NCBI RefSeq assembly: GCF_035084215.1 | Contig: NC_090327.1 | Location: 50,220,001-50,284,000 of the forward strand | Direction of reading: 5' to 3' | DNA length: 64,000 nucleotides | From: Heptranchias perlo | Lineage: Eukaryota | Shown: positions 1,373 through 48,349 of the stretch, piece after piece | How positions within the stretch are numbered: position 1 is the first letter of the stretch | Layout of the letters: each line of letters opens with the position of its first letter | Position numbers and translations under genes: made by a program | Notes under the pieces: generated by a model | Seen by the model: the letters and a program-made list of their open reading frames with translations, nothing else | What the model was told of the DNA's origin: nothing | Databases searched by the model: none

Positions 1373-2404
1373 TGGTTATGTTAAACACCAAAATTGTTTA
1401 TCTTCCAGAAATCTACCAGTAAAAGCCCAATCATCATTCTGTAATAGCTATTTCAATTTTTGGTTTTGCTTATGGTAATAGGGTAACATTCAACTCAAAG
1501 ACATTACATTATATGGAAATGAAATACTTTTATTTACAAAATGCATTTGTGTACCACCACCATCTACTAGTTGGCTTTTTGAACATGTGCATTTATCTTC
1601 AATGAACATCTATAAAAACAAATCAAATAAAAATATGTATATATAGGTTCTATTTAAAGACAAATCTTTTTGGTTACTCAGTGTTAATTGTACTATTATA
1701 CTTACAGAAATATATATGTTATCAAGTAAAATAATTATACTGATCGATTTAATTGCTTGGATGCATCTTAACTGTGACATAAAATTACTTGTGTTTATGC
1801 AGATTTTCCAAAGAAAGCAAAATGAATTTAGGTCTATGTAAATTTGATATTTTCCCCCCCATTTTAAATTACACCTTAATTAGACCAAAAACATAAAAGA
1901 ATCAGGTAGTTTAACAAAAAAAACTACTGGACACAGTAAATCAAATCAACTATTTTACCTTCTCAAACATATAAAATACAATATAAAGTCATTCAAAATC
2001 TTGCAATGCAAGAGAAAAAAAAAGTGCAAGAAAAGGCTTCATTTAAATTTTCTTGATAAGCTATCAAGCCAGTGTCATGTATTCTTCTATACCACAGGTA
2101 TTTGTGCTTTTAAAAAAAAGCTTGTGTTAAATATAAAATATAATTTCTGTAGTGTACAAGACCAAATTTTCATCCACAATTTCCCCATAGCAAGTTCCTG
2201 ATCTTGGCCCATTTGTCTGGGGAGAGATTAAGTGAAGCAGTTCACTCACTATACCCCCCACAAGGCATACTGAGTGAACTCAGAAAGCTGCATCATTTAT
2301 ATTGTAGGCATTGATGTCTATGTCATGGTCTAACTTTGGTTTCTCCTCTATGCTGCTCTTGTATTTTGTATATAATTACTGGGTAATATCTGCATATGCA
2401 CTTT

Positions 2405-2554
2405 GGGGGTGAAGTTCCGCAGGTGTTCTCCCACTCATCTGCTGCAACTTCAGCAGGAGCTGCGGAAACCTCGGAAAAATAGCTAGGATTTCTGTGACTC
2501 TTACGCTGAAATTACAGTGGATGAGCAAGACACCTTCCGTAGAAACTCATCCCC
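2405..2554. repeat. Imperfect palindromic MITE-like element
   Basis: 5' arm ggggtgaagttccgcaggtgtt...ctcatctgctgcaacttcagc pairs with 3' arm gctgaaattacagtggatgag...acaccttccgtagaaactcatcccc. Confidence 0.6.
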
Positions 2555-2837
2555 TTTTTTATATTATACTACAGGAAGTTTCTATTATAAATGTGGACTT
2601 AGGAATTTGTAATGGAAAAAGTTGTTAGGAAGTGCGTACAAACATAAGATTTTTATTATGTTATACAGATATGGTTTTGTTTTGTTTTTTGACAGACATG
2701 CATTTTATTTTTGATTAGCTTTTTTCTGTTTTATATATTTTTGCTTTTGCAATGTTCCAAATTTATCTCTTTCTCTGTGACGTTTCAGTTGAATGACACA
2801 CAATCATCTATTGTGCTACCATGTGATATTCTCAAAT

Positions 2838-3170
2838 GAACAATATCTTGTATTTATATAGCACCTTTAATATAGTAAAACATCCCAAGGCACTTCACAG
2901 AGATGTAATTGGGCAAAAATGGACAGCAAGACAAGAAATAGATATTAGGAAGAGGTGGAGAAAGGTGGAAAGGCAGAGGGATTTAGAGAAGGAATTCCAG
3001 AGCATTGGGCATAGACGGCCGACGGCACGGCCGCCACTGGCGGGGCGAGGGAGATGCACAAATTGCCAGAGTCAGTGGAACAGAGAGTTTGTATGGCAGG
3101 GGGAGGGGGGGAGGTAAGGCTAGAGATGGTTCCAGAGATAGGCCATGAAATACCAGGGATTCAACAAGAA
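2838..3170 (-). mobile_element. L2 LINE 3' fragment
   Basis: ttgtatttatatagcacctttaa tail; ggaattccagagc motif shared with the 43088 copy. Confidence 0.7.
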
Positions 3171-3993
3171 ACATTATTTTTGTGGTGTGCATAAACGTAG
3201 CCGTAGTTCTGAAATTATTTAATAATATCACCTGATGAGGTTGTTTTCATTACTTTTATTGGTTTTATTTTCACTGTTTAAAAATTCTTATCTGTGAATT
3301 ATATATGTTACTATTGCAGATAGGTGATAATTTTATTTTAAATATCTATTTTTTGCATATTCTTCCTCATAAGCAGTTTGCAATGTGCCTTAATCCCTTT
3401 CAGTTTACATGGGATTTTTACTTTCCTTGTCCCTTCTTTTCTAAATATAAAAGATATCCCTTTGCTAGACACCTCATTCCTCTGGTGGCAGAACAAGCAA
3501 ATATGTGCTCTAAGAATTGTGTAACAACAGCTTTAGGCAACTATCCCATTCTGACTTTTATATAGAAACTTGAGAAAGGATGAGCGTTTTCAACATACTC
3601 TCCAGCACATTCACTATTAGTTATATCAACCCTTTTCTATTGCAGTTCTTTTGGACAGAAGGTTCAATATTATAATGCCAACACATATTTTTATTTGGAT
3701 CTTCTGTATTTGTAATAGCAATAGAAAGTTTCAAGCCTTGTGTTGTGACTATTTGAAACATGGGGTTGTTAAAAATTGTTTTAAATTTAGTTCACTTGTG
3801 CCTGGTGCTATTCCCATTCATTTACTTAGGTTTTCAAAATCATTAAGGAAGTTGGGCTCGGTACAAACTTTGATGTAACCCAAATGAAATTTTCAAAATT
3901 AAAACAGGAATTGGCAAAGTTGATTCCAGCAAATTGTTCATTATCGCAAAGGGCTCAAATACTGGGGAATATAAGTAAATTAAAGATTAGGGA

Positions 3994-4235
3994 TAAAATC
4001 AGAAAATACTGGAATTACTCAGCATGTCAGGCAGCATCTGTGGAGAAAGAAATAGAATTAACGTTTCAGATCGATGACCCTTCATCAGAACTGGCTGCCA
4101 GTTCTGATGAAGGGTCATTGACCTGAAACGTTAACTCTGTTTCTTTCTCCACTGTGCTGCCTGACCTGCTGAGTATTTCCAGCATTTCCGGTTTTTATTT
4201 CAGATTTCCAGCATCCGCAGTATTTTGCTTTTGAT
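3994..4235. mobile_element. Fold-back Penelope-derived mini-element, family A
   Basis: About 100-bp inverted arms centred on 4096 plus a one-sided tail of about 35 nt; 14-bp TSD ttaaaga(t/c)taggga at 3980-3993 and 4236-4249. Confidence 0.85.
4100..4136 (+). ncRNA. Minimal type-I hammerhead ribozyme-like motif (weaker mirror copy on minus strand, about 4056-4092)
   Basis: AGUU-CUGAUGA-A-GGGUC(AUU)GACCU-GAAA-CG-UU-AACU. Confidence 0.65.
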
Positions 4236-5363
4236 TTAAAGACTAGGGAGTAAGGAATAAGAAGGAAAGTTGGGCAGAAAAAAAGACTTGCGGAATAAAT
4301 TACCAGGGAAGGACATGGAAGTGGACAGTGTAAATAGGTTCAAGAGACAATAGGGTTGGTGTCATATTTACTTAGCTGTGTTTGATCATTTGTTACATGC
4401 ACACTATATTTCTTATGGAGTGTTCTTTAGTTTTTGAGCTGTGGCAACATGTGTGGATATGAATCTCTTGTGTTGTTTGAAGCAGCTGGTCTTCATCTGG
4501 TGTAAAATCCCTTCAGTAGCAAATCAATACCTCATGTGAAATTAGCTAAAGGATCTTTTGTCCTGAGTGACAGTATATTTTGTGTTGCGCTGTTTGCTTC
4601 TATGGTGTTTTATTTTACTTTTTCCCTTCAATTTTCTTCCCTTTCTCCTGAACATGTGCCAGTTTCCACTTCTGTAGTGTTTTTATTGGTTATTGCTAAT
4701 GCAAGCTGCAGCAGGAAGTGAAATTTTAAATTTAGTGCTTTCAAAGCTGAGAGCTAGTGTGTGTCGTACATGGGTTTCTAATTATGTAACAACTGCTTTG
4801 TTACAAAAATAACTCATTAGGAATAAATCAGATTAGTCTTGTGTGCACACCTGTGGATTTAAAAACAGAACAGATGCCAAGGAATATCTGAATGTCAGAA
4901 GGATTCATCTCAAATCAACCATCAAATCTCAGTTTGATTTTTTATAAATGTTTATGCATTATGTGATTGGTCTCTTGAAAATATCAGGCTTTCATCAGTT
5001 CTTTGCTCAAAATGTTCTATATAGCTATGTACTGAATGGGATATTTCAGCCCCTGGAATCATTTCACTTTTGACGTACATCCAGTATCATTATGAAATTT
5101 GTATGTTGAAATTATTTTCCAAACTTAGTCTGACTTGAACTGCATAGAGATTTAGTGTATGCTAATACATTAAAAAATGGATGATTTGCTATCAATGATA
5201 AAAAAAAATCCATGTGAATATCAGAGCTTACCACACTGCAGAATTGAACCTCATACCCCATAACCATACAGTACATACAATTTTGCAGGACTATTTACCA
5301 TCACACATATGAATACAAAGTCACCTTCATGTCCCTTAGTATTCCTAGTTCTTGTGGGCGGTT

Positions 5364-5431
5364 CTATGATGCCCATGCTTTCAAATGCTTCATACTTTCA
5401 TCTTCCTCCTTTGTTTTCTTCTTAGTTGTAA
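5364..5431 (-). CDS. CHMP4C: CHMP4C coding exon 5 (stop)
   Basis: ctttctag acceptor; VTTKKKTKEEDESMKHLKAWAS* with the CHMP4 ALIX-binding MxxLxxW motif; total CDS 675 bp. Confidence 0.9.
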
Positions 5432-6021
5432 CTAGAAAGGAGACAATTAGTGTTCCTTTATTGAGGAATTGTACTTTTTCCATGTGGCCCACACAATTCT
5501 CTAGCCAAGAGGGTGGATTGGCATCTAGCTCACATGCTTCTTAATCATTTACCAAAAGATATTCAAGCGTAGCCTGTGTTGTAATTCTAATTTCGCCCTC
5601 ATCTTTAGAAACACTGTTCTAGTAACCCCTTGCTCAAAGACAATGTTAAATTGCCCATAATGTTGAACGTTTGTAACAATATCTAATTGTTACATGATAT
5701 GGATAAGCAAATGTAAATAAAGAGCCATAATTTGATGTGGCAGGACATAGTTAGACTTGCCCTTGCACGTTTTGGTTTTTTAATTTTTTGCGTGGCAAGT
5801 TGCTGAAAGTGTAAGCTGATAACGTCGCAGCGAGGGAAACAGGACATCTGGGACCTGAATGAACAGGGCAAGCAACTGTGTATCTCCTTGATCAATCAGA
5901 TTGAAGTATTCTGAAATTAACAGCGCAGGGGCTGAGAAGGAAGTGTAAATTAGTGTGGGTGAATTCAATGTCAAATCAGGTACGGAAAGGGAAATAAAGA
6001 GAGGGAATGAATAGAATAGAA

Positions 6022-6360
6022 TAGGGTGGATAGAGAGAAACTATTTCCGCTGGTTGGGGATTCTAGGAATAGGGGGCACAGTCTAAAAATTAGAGCCAGA
6101 CCTTTCAGGAGCAAGATTAGAAAACATTTCTACACACAAAGGGTGGTAGAAGTTTGGAACTCTCTTCCGCAAACGGCAATTGATACTAGCTCAATTGCTA
6201 AATTTAAATGTGAGATAGATAGCTTTTTGGCAACCAAAGGTATTAAGGGATATGGGCCAAAGGCAGGTATATGGAGCTAGATCACAGATCAGCCATGATC
6301 TTATCAAATGGCGGAGCAGGCACGAGGGGCTGAATGGCCTACTCCTGTTCCTATGTTCCT
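6022..6360 (+). mobile_element. CR1 3' fragment
   Basis: RGHSLKI...FYTQRVVEVWNSLP; tail cctatgttcct. Confidence 0.9.
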
Positions 6361-6586
6361 AAAGGTTGGATTAAGAGAGAGAGAAAAAGAAAGACAGAAA
6401 GGAAAATAAAAATAACATTTTAATGTAAAATTTTGCATTTCTAAAATCTCCCAACAACAATTAAAACCTGAAGGAATGAGACTCCATACTTGTAATAGTT
6501 AATTTTCAGTTCCAGCGAGGTTGAATGGCAGTAATTAATGCTTATCACGTCATTAAACGGGTACTCAGACTGAAATGAACAAGACT

Positions 6587-9005
6587 TGGATAACAGTAAC
6601 AATATAAGGGGCAAAGAGGGGGAGGAATTTTTGAAAAGTGTTCAGGATAACTTTCTTGACCAGTATGTTTCCGGCCCAACGAGGAAGGAGGCATTGCTGG
6701 ACTTGGTTCTAGGGAATGGGGCGGGCCAGGTGGAGCAAGTGTCAGTGGGGATCATTTAGGGAGCAACGATCATAGTACCATAAAGTTTAGAATAGCTATG
6801 GGAAAGGACATGAACCACTCTAAAGTAAAAATACTCAACTGGAGGAGGGCCAATTTCAGTGGGATGAGAACAGATCTGGCCTGGGTAAATTGGAATCAAA
6901 GATTGGCAGGCAAAACTGTAATTGAACAGTGGGCGGCCTTTGAAGAGGAGATGGTTGGGGTACAGTCTAGGCACATTCGCACAAGGCAGAAAGGTAGGGT
7001 AACTAAAGCCACAGCTCCCTGGATGACAAAAGAGATAGAGAGTAAGATGAAACCGAAAAAAAGGGTGTATGACAGATGTCAGGTTGAAAATACAAGTGAG
7101 AACCAGGTTGAATATAGAAAGTTCATTGGGGAAATGAAAAGGAAATAAGAGGGGAAAAGAGAGAGTAAGGGAATAGACTGGCAAGAAATCCAAAAGTCTT
7201 CCATAGGCCTGCAAACAGTAAACGGGTTGTAATAGGAGGGGTGGGGCCGATTAGGGACCATAAAGGAGATCTACTCATGGAGGCAGAGGGGATGGCGGAG
7301 GTACTAAATAAGTACTTTCCATCTGTCTTTACCAAGGAAGAAGATGCTGCCAGAGTCTCAGTAAAGGAAGATACAATTGAGATACTGGATGGGCTAAAAA
7401 TTGATAAAAAGGTACTAGAAAGGCTAGCTGTAATTAAAAGTAGATAAGTCATCCGGTCCGGATGGGATGCATCTTAGGTTGCTGAGGGAAGTAAAGGTGG
7501 AAATTGTAGAGGAACTGGCCATAATCTTCCAAACATCCGTAGATACGGGGGTGGTGCCAGAGGACTGGAGAATTGCAAATGTTACACCCTTGTTCAAAAA
7601 AGGGTGTAAGGATAAATCCAGCAACTACAGGCCAGTCAGTTTAACTTCAGTGGTGGGGAAACTTTTAGAAACGATAATCCAGAACAGAATTAGCAGTCAC
7701 TTGGACGAGGGTGGATTGATTAGGGAAAGCCAGCACGGATTTGTTAAAGGCAAATTGTGTTTAACCAACTTGATAGAGTTTTTTGATGAGGTAGCAGAGA
7801 GGGTAAATGAGGGCAATGCAGTTGATGTGGTGTATATGGACTTTCAAAAGGTGTTTGATAAAGCGCCGCATGATAGGCTTATCATCAAGATTGTGGCCCA
7901 TGGAATAAAAGGGGCAGTAGCAACATGGATACAGAATTGGCTAAGTGACAGGAAACAGAGAGTAGTGGTGAACGGTTGTTTTTTGGACTAGAGGGAGGTA
8001 TACAATGGTGTTCCCCAGGGGTTGGTGCTGGGACCACTGCTTTTCTTGATATGTATTAATGACTTGGACTTTGGTATACAGGGCACAATTTCAAAATTTG
8101 CAGATGACACAAAACTTGGAAGGGTAGTTAACAGTGAGGAGGATAGTGATAGACTTCAAGAGGATATAGACAGGCTGGTGGCACGGGTGGACATGTGGCA
8201 GATGAAATTTAACGCAGAAAATGCAAAGTGATACATTTTGGTAGGAAGAATGAGGAGAGGCAATATAAACTAGAGGGCACAATTCTAAAAGGGGTACAGG
8301 AACAGAGAGATCTGGGGGTATATGTGCACAAATCGTTGAAGGTGGCAGGGCAGGTTGAGAAAGCGGTTAAAAAAGCATACGGGATCCTGGGCTTTGTAAA
8401 TAGAGGTACAGTGCACAAAAGTACGGAAGTCATGAACCACCTTTATAAAACATTGGTTCGGCCACAACTGGAGTATTGCGTCCAGTTCTGGGTATCGCAC
8501 TTTAGCAAAGATGTGAAGGCCTTAGAGAGGGTGCAGAAGAGATTCCAGGAATGAGGGGCTTTAATTACGTGGATAGACTGGAGGAGCTGGGGTTATTCTC
8601 CTTGGAACAGAGAAGGTTGCGAGGAGATTTGATAGAGGTATTCAAAATCATGAAGGGTCTAGACAGAGTAGATACAGAAAAACTGTTCCCATTGGCGGAA
8701 GGGTCAAGAACCAGAGGGCATAGATTTAAGGTGATTGGCAAAAGAACCAAAGGTGACGAGGAAAAACTATTTTACACAGCAAATGGTTAAGATCTGGAAT
8801 GCACTTCCCGCGGGGATGGTGGAGGCAGATTCAATCATGGCCTCTAAAAGGGAACTGGATAAGTACTTGAGAGGAAAAAATTTGCAGGGCTACGGGGATA
8901 GGGCTGGGGAGTGAGACTAGCTGGATTGGTCTTGCGTAGAGCTGGTACGAACTCGATGGGCTGAATGGCCTCCTTCCGTGCTGTAACCTTTCTATGATTC
9001 TATGA
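6587..9005 (+). mobile_element. Degenerate CR1 LINE, about 2.4 kb
   Basis: Series of frameshifted ORF2 fragments 6798-8790; (ttctatga)n tail; gactt repeated on both flanks. Confidence 0.93.
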
Positions 9006-12643: not shown

Positions 12644-12758
12644 CTCATCAAATTCTGAACCAAATGCAGCTGGTCGGGAAATTGCATCAGAGATTTCGTG
12701 TGCTATTTCATGCTGTTCTGTGATATCTTGCATCATCTCATCAATTTTATCTAAATCC
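12644..12758 (-). CDS. CHMP4C: CHMP4C coding exon 3
   Basis: Manual translation DLDKIDEMMQDITEQHEIAHEISDAISRPAAFGSEFDE; cccccag / gtacat boundaries; 115 bp. Confidence 0.94.
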
Positions 12759-16535: not shown

Positions 16536-16780
16536 AATGTGGAGTTGGGGAGGAGCAGTAGTGCTCCTCCCTGCCCCACATTAAAACTGGGAGCAACTGC
16601 CAGTCATCGCTCGTCCATCCTCCTGACTATCACCCCGTACCGTCCCCCCGATATATCCACACAAACAACAATAGGGACTAAAAAAAATTGAATGCAATAT
16701 GGATCCAAAGTAATGTCAATTATTAGAATCACTTATTTGGAAATAAGCTAACTAGAATTTGGCACAGATGGATCACTTAC

Positions 16781-16958
16781 ATGTGCTCATGAGCAGCTTT
16801 TATGGCCTTTGCAGCATAGCCCATAGATTTCAATACTTCAGTATTTGTGTTTGCATTTTCTAATGCTTCTCGTTGGAATTCAATTGTAGAGAGTGTACCA
16901 TCAATCTGTGCTAACTGTTTTTCAAATCTCTTCTTTCGTTTGAGTGCTTGTAGGGCAG
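16781..16958 (-). CDS. CHMP4C: CHMP4C coding exon 2
   Basis: ttttcccag acceptor; AALQALKRKKRFEKQLAQIDGTLSTIEFQREALENANTNTEVLKSMGYAAKAIKAAHEHM; gtaagt donor; 178 bp, phase fits. Confidence 0.95.
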
Positions 16959-17221
16959 CTGGGAAAAGAAACAATATAACTATGAATGTAATCAGTTCAA
17001 GGAATATAACTTTAGTATCAGATTTTCAGAAAGTATTTTCAGAATATCCACCACATAATCATCAAGGGAAACTAGAAAAAAAAAGGAATACCCAATGCAA
17101 CATATAAGCAGAGAAAAAGAAACAACTGCAACTGACCAAGAAGATGGATATTCATGAGTAGGATGCATTATTTCAGCTGGATGAGGTATGTGCCCATTGG
17201 ACTGGGTCCTACTTCGATGAT

Positions 17222-17345
17222 AAAGAGCAAAAAACTGCAATTGCTAGAAATCTGAAACAAAAGCTTGAGGAACAGCACTTTATCTTTTTATTAGACACTC
17301 TGTAACCCACTGGCTTTAATATTGATTTTAATAGCTTCAAACCAT
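17222..17345 (+). mobile_element. Degraded Penelope fragment with inverted terminus
   Basis: Family-A terminus (aagagcaaaaaactgc...gaaatctgaaa) joined to oppositely oriented KLEEQHFIFLLDTL*PTGFNIDFNSFK. Confidence 0.6.
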
Positions 17346-22301: not shown

Positions 22302-22500
22302 GGAGATGCCGGTGATGGACTGGGGTTGACAATTGTAAACAATTTTACAACACCAAGTTATAGTCCAACAAATTTATTTTAAATTCCACAAGCTTTCAGA
22401 GGTTTCCTCCTTCACCTGACGAAGGAGGAAGCCTCCGAAAGCTTGTGGAATTTAAAATAAATTTGTTGGACTATAACTTGGTGTTGTAAAATTGTTTACA
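22302..22500. mobile_element. Fold-back Penelope-type mini-element, family B, copy 1
   Basis: About 80-bp inverted arms with a one-sided tail of about 30 nt; 13-bp direct repeat caaattaatttgg at 22291-22303 and 22499-22511. Confidence 0.85.
22411..22449 (+). ncRNA. Minimal type-I hammerhead ribozyme-like motif
   Basis: UUCAC-CUGACGA-A-GGAGG(AAG)CCUCC-GAAA-GC-UU-GUGGA. Confidence 0.65.
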
Positions 22501-28759: not shown

Positions 28760-31230
28760 AGATCTTGTCACAGCCTTGATCCAGACACCAACATGAGCTG
28801 AATGCCTGAGGAGAGGTGGGAGTAGCTGTCCTCAAAATCAAGACAGCATTTGACAAAGGAGCCCTAGCAAAACTGAGGTCAATAATTACACAGAATTTAC
28901 AGCACAGAAACAGGCCATTCAGTCCAACTGGTCTGTGCTGGTGTTTATGCTCCACATGAGCCTTTTCCCATCCTACTTCATCTAACCCCATCAGGATATC
29001 CTTCTATCCCTTTCTCCCACGTATTTATTTAGCTTCCCCTTAAATGCATTTATGCTATTTGCCTCAACTACTCCATGTGTTAGCAAGCTCCACATTCTAA
29101 CCACTCTGGATAAAGTAGTTTCTCCTGAATTCTTTATTGGATTTATTAGTGACTACCTTATATTTATGGCTCCTAGTTTTGGATTCCCCCACAAGGGGAT
29201 CGGGTGGGAAAGTGGAGTTGAGGTCAAAGATCAGTCTCAAGGGCAATTAGGGATGGGCAATAAATGCTGGCTTTGCCAGCGACTCCCACATCCCATGAAC
29301 GAATTTTAAAAAAGGATCTTATTGAATGGCGGAGCATGCTTGAGGGGGCGTATGGCCTACTCCTGCTCCTATTTCTTATGTTCTTATGAAACATCTTCTC
29401 TACGTCTACCCTATCAAACCCCTTCATAATTTTAAAGACCTCTATAACATCACCCCTCAGCCTTCTCTTTTCTAGAGAAAAGAGCCCCAGCCTGTTCAGT
29501 CTTTCCTGCTAGTTATAACCTCTCAGTTCTGGTATCATCCTTGTAAATCTTTTTTGTACCTTCTCCAGTGCCCCTATACCCTTTTTGTAATATGGAGATC
29601 AGAACTGTACACAGTACTCCCAAGTGTGGTCTAACTCAGGTTTGTACAAGTTTAACATAACTTCCCTGCTTTTCAATGCTATTCCTCTAGCAATAAACCC
29701 CACTCCTTTGTTTGCATTTTTTATGGCCATATTAACTTGCGTTGCTACTTTTAATGATTTGTGAATGTGTACCCCTAGATCCCTTTGCTCCTCTACTCCA
29801 TTTAGACTCTTACTTTCCAAGGAGTATGTGGCCTTCTTATTCTTCCTATCAAAATTCAAAATAATGGTGAATGGGAAAACACTTCATTGGCTGGAGTTGT
29901 GCCTGACACAAAGGAAGATGGTTGTGGATGTCAGAGACCATTCGTTGCAGTCCCAGGACATCGCTGCAGGAGTTCCTCAGGGACATGTCCTCAGCCCAAC
30001 CATTTTCATCTGCTGCTTCAATGAGCACCTCTCCATTAGAATATCAGGAGTGGAGCTGTTATCGACAATTCTGTAGTGTTTGGCTCCATTTACAACTGCT
30101 CCAACAATGAAACAGTCCTTATCACTCACACAGGACTTAGATAATATCCAAGCACAGACAACATCCAGGCACAGACTGGCAAGTGTCGGGTAACATTCGT
30201 GCCAAGTAATGACCAACACAAAAAAGGGAAAGCCCAGCCACTTACCCCGACCTTCAATCGCACCACCATTTCCAGGTCTACTGACCACCAATATCTTGAG
30301 GGTCACCATTGACCTGAAGCTTAACTGGACCAGCCATATCAACCCCATAGCTATGAGAGTAGGGCAGAGGCTGGGTACTGTGTGACAAGTGGCTTACTTC
30401 CTGATCCCTCAAGGCTCAAATTAGGAGTGTGGTGGGTGCAGCCTCAACAACAATTCAAAAGCAAAATACTGCGGATGCTGGAAATCTGAAATAAAACAGA
30501 AAATGCTGGAAAAGCTCAGCAAGAGAGGCAGCATCTGTGGGGAAAGAAACAGTTAACGTTTCAGGTCGAAGACCTTTTGTCAGAGCTGGAAGATGTTAAG
30601 AGTTAAAGTTTTTAAGCAAGTACAGAGCCAGTGAAAGGGGGATGGAGGGGAGGAAAGAACAAAAGGGAAAGTCTGGGATAGGGTGGAGGGATTAAATGAC
30701 AAAAGGGATGATGGTAATGGGACAAGTTAAGAAACAAAAGATTGGTCTAGAAGAGCTTTGAATGGCAACAGCAGAACCATTACCAGCACTTGCTGTCTGA
30801 AAAAATGGGAGCGGTCGTTATGATCTGAAGTTATTGAAATCATTGTTGAGTCCAGAAGGTTGTAAAGTGCCTAATCAAAAGATGAGGTGCTGTTCCTCGA
30901 GCTTATGTTGACAACAATTGATAAACTCAACACCATCCAGGGCATATCAGTTCGCTTGATCGGCCCCTGCCACTGGACTCAACACCCTTCCCCTCTACAT
31001 TGCACCATAAGGATATGCTGCAAAACCCCAGGGAGCCTACTTTAGTGCTACCATGCTCTGTGACCCTCCGTTCCAGTTTTGCCAAAACCCGAACCCTGTG
31101 CTACCAAAGCTTGATGCCGCAAGTGCAGCTAAACTCACTTCCTTTGCCCATTACCACCATCATCTCACGGCAGCTAGGGATGTGTGATAAATGTGGCCTT
31201 GCCAGCATCTCTTGTATCCCAAAACAAATA
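28760..31230. mobile_element. Nested cluster: old CR1-Zenon-like LINE (+) interrupted by CR1 (-, about 28885-29855), short tails (+, about 29195-29387) and a Penelope fragment
   Basis: Zenon-like pieces resume colinearly after each insertion (AFDK..., WLELCLTQRKMVV, KLNWTSHI, tail gggatgtgtgataaatg). Confidence 0.75.
30456..30910 (-). mobile_element. Penelope-like element 3' fragment (GIY-YIG C-terminus plus pseudo-LTR)
   Basis: Minus strand reads KLEEQHLIF*LGTLQPSGLNNDFNNFR, then the same terminal sequence as 3994-4235; TSD acaacaatt at 30447-30455 and 30911-30919. Confidence 0.8.
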
Positions 31231-47950: not shown

Positions 47951-48128
47951 AGAATGATTTTAAACTGCCATCATATGGTTTTTCCCCACAAGTCATTTGA
48001 AGAATCTTTCTGCACTCTTAAATTCTGGAATATGATTAAAATTTTAGATACATTTTGTCTTTGTGTGGTATTTAGTTGCAGAGATGGTTATAATGGATAG
48101 GTATCTCAGCACTGGTTTCACTGATATA

Positions 48129-48349
48129 TTGTAAACAATTTTACAACACCAAGTTATAGTCCAGCAATTTTATTTTAAATTCACAAGCTTTCGGAGGCTT
48201 TCTCCTTCCTCAGGTGAACGATGTGGGAAGGAGGAAGGAGAAAGCCTCCGAAAGCTTGTGAATTTAAAATAAAATTGCTGGACTATAACTTGGTGTTGTA
48301 AAATTGTTTACAATTGTCAACCCCAGTCCATCACCGGCATCTCCACATC
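48129..48349. mobile_element. Fold-back Penelope-type mini-element, family B, copy 2 (opposite orientation)
   Basis: Same arms and tail as 22302-22500; 12-bp TSD ttcactgatata at 48117-48128 and 48350-48361. Confidence 0.87.
48180..48218 (-). ncRNA. Minimal type-I hammerhead ribozyme-like motif
   Basis: UUCAC-CUGAGGA-A-GGAG(AAAGC)CUCC-GAAA-GC-UU-GUGAA. Confidence 0.65.

Follow-up and report, generated by a model that had tools for sequence, protein, structure and literature searches.

Head-to-head Penelope-like terminal repeats with a one-sided tail in the likely 3' UTR of a shark CHMP4C gene: a probable dead-end insertion with hammerheads predicted to be silent

Penelope-like elements (PLEs) are described, in the parts of the published accounts drawn on here, as typically inserting with an inverted 5'-truncated copy and a tail of 30-40 bp (PMC8557442, PMC3846280), and the palindromes at their junctions have been attributed to self-priming on an antisense template (PMC3846280). 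Promoters have been described in their pLTRs (PMC3846280, PMC2377424), and a C-x(2-5)-C-x2-C linker between RT and EN marks the Neptune/Nematis PLEs (PMC8557442). In the portions used of a study of PAc, the protein cuts and extends both target strands and starts reverse transcription at two internal sites that bound the tail; insertion uses uncut RNA, hammerhead cleavage is dispensable, and the PAc hammerhead cuts only with protein (PMC11167929). The hammerheads of PLEs have been noted, in the sections consulted, as motif pairs on opposite strands 100-700 bp apart; a single minimal hammerhead shows no cleavage and dimers show low cleavage, and the G10.1-C11.1 pair is frequent but not absolute in the minimal forms (PMC4209133). 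Both the layout (inverted repeat, tail and TSD) and the hammerhead motif are already published. A literature search of partial coverage, with most subscription journals and Repbase outside it, returned nothing on shark PLE fold-backs, PLE twin priming, or PLE hammerheads in host 3' UTRs.

The window analysed in this study is a stretch of 64,000 nucleotides from the shark Heptranchias perlo, and positions below are those of the window. The preferred reading, with a probability of roughly 0.8, is that 242 bp at 3994-4235, between two TSD copies, are head-to-head PLE terminal repeats with a one-sided tail, likely left by a dead-end, single-event insertion, and that their hammerheads are predicted to be silent, locked in a hairpin within the likely CHMP4C 3' UTR. 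The features of the insert are as follows.

3980-3993, unstranded: left TSD, 14 bp, 13 of 14 identical to 4236-4249
3993-4095, minus strand (CHMP4C mRNA sense): tail-less arm, PLE terminal repeat (5' leader), placed by arm alignment
4056-4092, minus strand: minimal type I hammerhead on the mRNA strand, predicted cut 3' of 4060
4096, unstranded: head-to-head junction, 1 nt between the arms, both of which end 6-7 nt 5' of the CUGA core
4097-4198, plus strand: tail-bearing arm, PLE terminal repeat, 86% identical to 30592-30455
4100-4136, plus strand: minimal type I hammerhead, antisense to CHMP4C, predicted cut 3' of 4132
4194-4199, minus strand (mRNA strand): AATAAA hexamer from the element, candidate poly(A) signal
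4199-4235, plus strand: PLE tail, 37 nt, on one side only (compare the two RT start sites that bound the tail in the parts used of PMC11167929)
4236-4249, unstranded: right TSD, 14 bp, paired with 3980-3993

The dimensions given in a preliminary description of this DNA (an insert of about 240 bp with a 14-bp TSD, inverted arms of about 100 bp and a one-sided tail of about 35 nt) agree with those measured here, the arms being 103 and 102 bp long. Aligned with each other, they match in 91 of 103 columns with one gap. The tail-bearing arm is 88-90% identical to the 5' repeat of two full-length copies (L144 and L160), and in full-length copies the tail stands about 40 nt upstream of the ORF start. 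The minus strand of the insert folds at -150 kcal/mol (z = -19.3), and since none of 200 shuffles was equally stable the fold is not attributable to chance. Two side observations concern the tail end. Tail-first insertions of this PLE family into genes could provide early poly(A) signals, the AATAAA on the minus strand at 4194-4199 being a candidate. Additionally, arm and tail together (4153-4232, plus strand) correspond to a short ORF of about 27 codons in copies of the family, which stops where the tail does, ahead of the main ORF, and which is broken here by a 1-nt deletion.

The preliminary description had proposed that each strand encodes a minimal hammerhead, and the pattern is indeed present on plus and minus, with a CUGANGA...GAAA core, NUH, helices I and II, a palindromic stem III and an extra base after A9. 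On the plus strand, stem I lies at 4100-4103, CUGAUGA at 4104-4110, the extra A at 4111, stem II at 4112-4116/4120-4124, GAAAC at 4125-4129, GUU at 4130-4132 and stem I' at 4133-4136. The minus hammerhead has its core at 4088-4082 and GUU at 4062-4060, with two extra G-U wobbles, one in stem II and one in stem I. An Rfam scan of the window at E<=5 matched no hammerhead family, so the motif is assigned from the pattern match together with the minimal descriptor in the part used of PMC4209133. A mir-192 match at 4066-4126 (27 bits against a cut-off of 54) was rejected as a weak hairpin artefact. When both strands of the window were scanned with a relaxed minimal-hammerhead pattern, 5 matches were obtained, all within such repeat copies. 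Both cores of the insert retain every catalytic base; G8 has decayed in 9 of 26 long copies. The conserved G10.1-C11.1 pair is absent, being G-U in both arms and A-U in all 26 long copies. Among 26 motif matches in 29 long loci the stems showed scattered single changes and no double changes, which is what would be expected of neutrally decaying copies.

The window also holds a second fold-back family, with two copies (about 22330-22500 and 48128-48315; cores at 22416 on the plus and 48213 on the minus strand). Its minimal hammerhead differs in having a G-C-rich stem II and the palindrome AAGCUU, and here too the fold-backs are centred on, or close to, the 5' side of the hammerhead. Because this family keeps the layout with other letters in stem II and palindrome, it supports the hammerhead motif being real in the master elements.

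The origin of the repeat was traced through a related copy in the window: 4095-4234 matches 30592-30455 at 86%, and the copy at 30455 extends into a PLE endonuclease frame, of which it holds the C-terminal end, on the minus strand.

30455-30910, minus strand: 5'-truncated copy of the parent PLE, with endonuclease C-terminus, 3' UTR, terminal repeat, decayed hammerhead core and tail

In all 30 longer loci examined this repeat formed the 3' end, and upstream stepping from longer loci reached copies with RT and GIY-YIG similarity. The best values (RVT_1, E=7.9e-5; GIY-YIG, E=0.0097) both fall short of the Pfam cut-off and come from 2 of the 5 degenerate frames scanned; the order of the domains, with GIY-YIG C-terminal to RT, can be seen in these copies. 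These full-length parents with RT and GIY-YIG back the Penelope origin that had been proposed from the GIY-YIG remnant at 30456-30910. Among the 30 loci, the terminal repeat, whole or partial, also precedes the long ORF in L144, L160, L162 and L147. Because the same repeat stands ahead of the ORF, it is read as a pLTR, and what the insert copies as the 5' leader of the element. Of 8 long loci, 5 have a C-x4-C-x2-C linker in front of their GIY-YIG motif; judged by this cysteine linker, the insert is the terminal repeat of a putative Neptune-type PLE. The label 'Poseidon clade' for the parent was discarded after the cysteine-linker test.

Two other PLE pieces were observed along the way. At 17220-17345 of the window a tail-only minus piece (17262-17220) is fused head to head to a plus-strand endonuclease C-terminal fragment, giving very unequal arms. 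Near one copy of this family (L129, plus strand, about 5569-6762) a different PLE family is represented by a stop-free frame of 398 aa that runs from RT thumb to GIY-YIG.

The insert is one of many. At least 780 places in the genome carry two exact inverted 16-mers within 200 nt, against 0 for the reversed-pattern control, and exact 29-mer hammerhead arms number 4907 + 418 genome-wide. The first 50 of the 780 fold-backs in position order (C1 and the start of C2, loci L073-L122) were taken as a sample. In 40 of these 50 the tail arm reaches to within 3 nt of the element end, and in 43 of 50 the other, tail-less arm stops 26-46 nt short of it (35-38 nt in 23). TSDs of 9-16 bp accompany 32 of the fold-backs and TSDs of 7-8 bp another 7, the remaining 11 having none. 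Judged by spacer and by the coordinates of the arm ends, 49 of the 50 junctions are distinct, and the length between anchors ranges from 48 to 204 nt. Both cores are present in 9 of 50 fold-backs and both hammerheads are complete in 3. Long copies repeat the inverted layout at an arm scale of 130-550 bp and above.

These data bear on the idea of a self-propagating non-autonomous mini-element (MITE- or retrozyme-like), in which the whole 240-nt fold-back would be transcribed and reinserted. In its favour, at least 40 loci align with the 242 bp over most or all of their length at 84-90% identity (40 of 4451 candidates were scored), and most of those viewed have their own apparent TSD. However, those 40 were chosen for likeness to the query and their centres still differ, while in the position-ordered sample the junctions and the anchor spacing vary from copy to copy and the same inverted layout recurs in the long copies. 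The mini-element is thus largely refuted and is considered very improbable, and the term 'mini-element' used in the preliminary description, as a unit copied whole, is not borne out. Since the junctions vary from copy to copy, the fold-back is instead likely to have been rebuilt at each insertion. Two intact back-to-back hammerheads are then likely one outcome among many, and no conserved design; the meaning earlier attached to the back-to-back cores is further weakened by their lying on opposite strands, where they form no dimer within one RNA.

Where the arms stop gives some indication of how a fold-back may form. Arm ends were counted from the C of CUGA with our own alignment script, in the mapping version without arm overlap; the copies are degenerate and some ends are uncertain by several nt. 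On this basis 26 of the 100 inner arm ends of the 50 fold-backs fell at -7 to -2, 8 lay further upstream and 66 were spread downstream. The uniform drop-off rate seen downstream would place about 4 ends at -7 to -2 (P = 2.5e-17), and both arms of the copy at 3994-4235 end at -6/-7. Ends within 2 nt of the cut site numbered 2 of 100 against 7.5 expected from the flanking density. A direct pattern search picked up 3 places, of which 1 has its centre at the cut site; a second pattern picked up 9 centred before the core, the two patterns being unlike in CpG content. That one place (L062, G000:C14:24194189-24194218), whose fold-back centre coincides with the predicted cut site, is a single case that a natural palindrome there would also explain. 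Both arms of the insert include sequence 5' of the cut site, so its template was uncut RNA, and the clustering of arm ends just 5' of stem I and not at the cut site shows that the templates were mostly uncut in general.

The simplest reading of the pile-up at -7 to -2 is that it suggests run-off at the RNA start. An A-run lies about 21-30 nt upstream of this boundary, and the boundary itself resembles an initiator. A cap-like extra G was absent from the arm ends: in the first 100 of 418 non-template -7 arms, counted by hand, the letter was A in 36, C in 41 and G in 23. The read-through control, also a hand count, gave C 40, A 9 and G 4 (53 of 53). With no G excess at -7, the RNA-start reading stands without a cap signature. 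Of the 5325 intact-hammerhead arms genome-wide, 4907 still match at -7, so the boundary is limited to short fold-backs. The boundary also resembles a 3' splice site, with a pyrimidine tract and CAG, and the self-complementary hammerhead stems could favour joining there.

An insertion route that would produce these features can be proposed. The element protein would nick both target strands about 14 bp apart, and each nick would prime reverse transcription on element RNA, the two start sites lying about 37 nt from each other. One cDNA would begin from the tail end and the other 37 nt further in, leaving a one-sided tail. Both cDNAs would be short, through early drop-off or through run-off at the RNA 5' end, which would lie 2-7 nt ahead of the hammerhead core; the two cDNA ends would then be joined head to head and repaired. 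Staggered nicks, two start sites and joining would together account for the TSD, the one-sided tail, the unequal arms and the varied junctions. The broader claim, that the fold-backs are a fossil record of PLE insertion by dual-strand priming on uncut RNA that starts 2-7 nt before the core, from two start sites separated by one tail-length, with the cDNAs joined, is put at even odds. If it is true, the hammerhead would be the very first structure of the element RNA, and the templates copied would be ones that the hammerhead had left uncut.

The joining of two cDNAs is a hypothetical step of this model, and the same dead-end PLE insertion could instead have obtained its palindrome from one cDNA folding back and priming itself, with the -7 to -2 boundary set by a splice acceptor or by RNA structure. 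Self-priming is the published account of junction palindromes (PMC3846280, in the part used), and zero spacer or short overlaps occur at many junctions. However, truncation often falls at widely separated points in the two arms, the longer being sometimes the one and sometimes the other, and the outer starts are fixed 35-38 nt apart, as for two RT sites on two target strands (PMC11167929, in the part used). For the boundary, the acceptor-like letters and the missing cap-G signature suit splicing or structure, as does a Drosophila Penelope intron that ends at the helix I 5' end in the section consulted of PMC4209133; against splicing, inspection of the junctions by eye showed no common upstream exon sequence. 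This combination is regarded as unlikely, though it keeps a real share of the probability, and the joining of two cDNAs made on two target strands is retained as the working model.

The gene next to the insert was identified from its exons and its neighbour.

1425-5363, minus strand: likely long 3' UTR of about 3.8 kb holding the hairpin, from flanking contigs, with strand and continuity presumed
5364-5431, minus strand: coding part of the last CHMP4 exon, with acceptor AG at 5433-5432 and stop TAG at 5366-5364

Snf7 matches lie on the minus strand at 16777-16959 and 12644-12757, and the CHMP4 exons are nearest to CHMP4B among solved structures. On the plus strand, 27 kb to the left of the window, there is a PX-domain match (E = 6.9e-4). 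An acidic terminal exon (L124:7435-7540, G000:C3:50207435-50207540) that ends at C3:50207538 belongs to an SNX16-like gene convergent with CHMP4. The PX match and the acidic exon are presumably those of SNX16, tail to tail with CHMP4, and with the human gene order this neighbour supports the name CHMP4C. Synteny with the SNX16-like gene therefore suggests that the gene is CHMP4C; a search for a ZFAND1-type zf-AN1 domain gave no match near the window and was of no help to the synteny. In the last CHMP4 intron, at about 6600-8000 on the plus strand, degenerate CR1/LINE-like reverse transcriptase sequence was seen by eye.

The distance from the CHMP4 stop to 4250 is 1114 nt, in agreement with the earlier estimate of about 1.1 kb. 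However, the cleavage site proposed with it, after 4132, is not on the mRNA strand: CHMP4C lies on the minus strand, so 4132 is antisense and the site relevant to the mRNA is 3' of 4060.

Transcription across the region was assessed over 1400-5800 with unstranded contigs from four runs (X1-X4) of one sample, presumed to be RNA. Contigs cover 4209/4211-5433 in all four runs (in two pieces in X3), ending at the splice acceptor; those of X2, X3 and X4 run past the acceptor with other letters, and intron bins have a depth of 0-9. On the far side of the insert, contigs cover 1673-4046 (X1), 1425-4046 (X3) and 1582-4045 (X4, two pieces), X2 being patchy. Both flanks of the insert are covered at similar depth figures. 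Contigs cross the left edge of the element with more than 31 letters to either side of it, and the right edge with only 25-27 letters inside; in none of the four runs did a contig span 4046-4211. Exact cover is zero at 4059-4080 in all four runs and at 4158-4190 in X1; a hole of this kind proves nothing and holes occur in both arms, so they count neither for nor against cleavage or editing. An AATAAA at 1534-1529 fits the far UTR end, and the stop of the SNX16-like gene is about 12.5 kb outside the window. The hairpin is thus likely to lie within a CHMP4C 3' UTR of about 3.8 kb, with continuity read from unstranded contigs of one sample on either side of an unspanned gap. The suggestion in the preliminary description of a long 3' UTR containing the hairpin is in that sense probably correct.

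Cleavage of the CHMP4C mRNA by the insert is unlikely on the folding predictions. On either strand the hammerhead sits in the 3' arm behind its own complement, which would be transcribed first and would draw it into a duplex of about 100 bp, so that a lone minimal hammerhead would neither fold nor dimerise. In equilibrium predictions the hammerhead helices have a probability of 0.000 in the whole element on either strand and of at most 0.02 in the isolated minus arm (stem II about 0.02), and forcing them costs 49.8 (plus) or 61.7 (minus) kcal/mol. The element has one core per strand and so no second hammerhead on the same strand, and a two-arm cofold, which is a weak test, gave no dimeric hammerhead fold. 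Cleavage is unlikely because each transcript has one hammerhead where a dimer is needed, its own complement lies upstream, and 50-62 kcal/mol would be needed to free it. The cleavage that had been proposed after 4132 is thereby doubly disfavoured: 4132 is on the wrong strand for the mRNA, and the hairpin is predicted to sequester the motif whichever strand is read.

It could still be asked whether the hairpin has been co-opted to control the CHMP4C mRNA, as a target of A-to-I editing or of an RBP, as an early poly(A) signal (4199-4194), or as a ribozyme cutting after 4060 once unwound. The presumed RNA at similar depth figures on both flanks, the very stable hairpin and an AATAAA contributed by the element to the mRNA strand are all compatible with this, as is the retention of the catalytic bases in both cores while G8 has decayed in 9 of 26 long copies. 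However, with hundreds to thousands of inserts some will lie in UTRs by chance, and the arms differ at 12 of 103 columns, with two extra wobbles in the mRNA-strand hammerhead, as in neutral decay. The single sequestered hammerhead per strand also weighs against a ribozyme role, and RNA extends 2.4-2.6 kb past the element. Co-option is accordingly held to be improbable; a passive effect of the dsRNA, e.g. editing, may still occur.

As a single locus the insert is of small importance, since its layout and motif are known and at least 780 alike occur in the genome, and a ribozyme role for it is predicted not to hold. Taken together, the fold-backs of the family provide usable data on how PLE inverted repeats and tails form and on what the hammerhead does. 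If the UTR position is confirmed, the insert is also a ready test of whether hairpins of about 100 bp in host mRNAs are edited or noticed by the cell. The Clec2 hammerhead is reportedly a full hammerhead, whereas the insert has one minimal core per strand. The two are alike in placing a hammerhead in a vertebrate 3' UTR (PMC7229834). Retrozymes, as the portion consulted of PMC6155905 describes them, likewise carry a hammerhead in a non-coding mobile repeat, but theirs are same-strand hammerheads in direct repeats, unlike the one minimal, self-masked core per strand found here.

The motif itself is like the minimal hammerheads of metazoan PLE pLTRs in lacking helix III and in having a palindromic 15.2-16.2, an extra base between 9 and 10.1 and a short helix I (PMC4209133). 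Relative to the sections used of that paper, the insert differs in that its two cores are only 15 nt apart, within one perfect duplex, and in that position 10.1-11.1 departs from the conserved G-C in the insert as in the long copies. PAc, Poseidon of Anolis carolinensis, offers a parallel in its tail between two fixed positions, its uncut RNA template and a hammerhead dispensable for insertion (PMC11167929, in the part used). However, the PAc tail is 111-118 nt inside the ORF whereas that of the insert comes from the 5' leader and precedes the ORF start by about 40 nt, and the parent here has a Neptune/Nematis-type cysteine linker.

In terms of layout, the insert corresponds to the insertion units of EN+ PLEs in the parts used of PMC3846280 and PMC8557442, with a head-to-head inverted terminal repeat, a 37-nt tail at one end, a TSD, a junction palindrome, and a parent with RT and C-terminal GIY-YIG. 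Its TSD of 14 bp is longer than the 8-10 bp of the rotifer examples in those parts, and it is an extreme short form that holds no ORF sequence and belongs to a population of hundreds to thousands of copies. By these comparisons the insert would not be a fixed non-autonomous unit, nor, in its context, a cleavage-competent ribozyme; it shows the marks examined of an EN+ PLE insertion, namely the inverted pLTR, the tail and the TSD.
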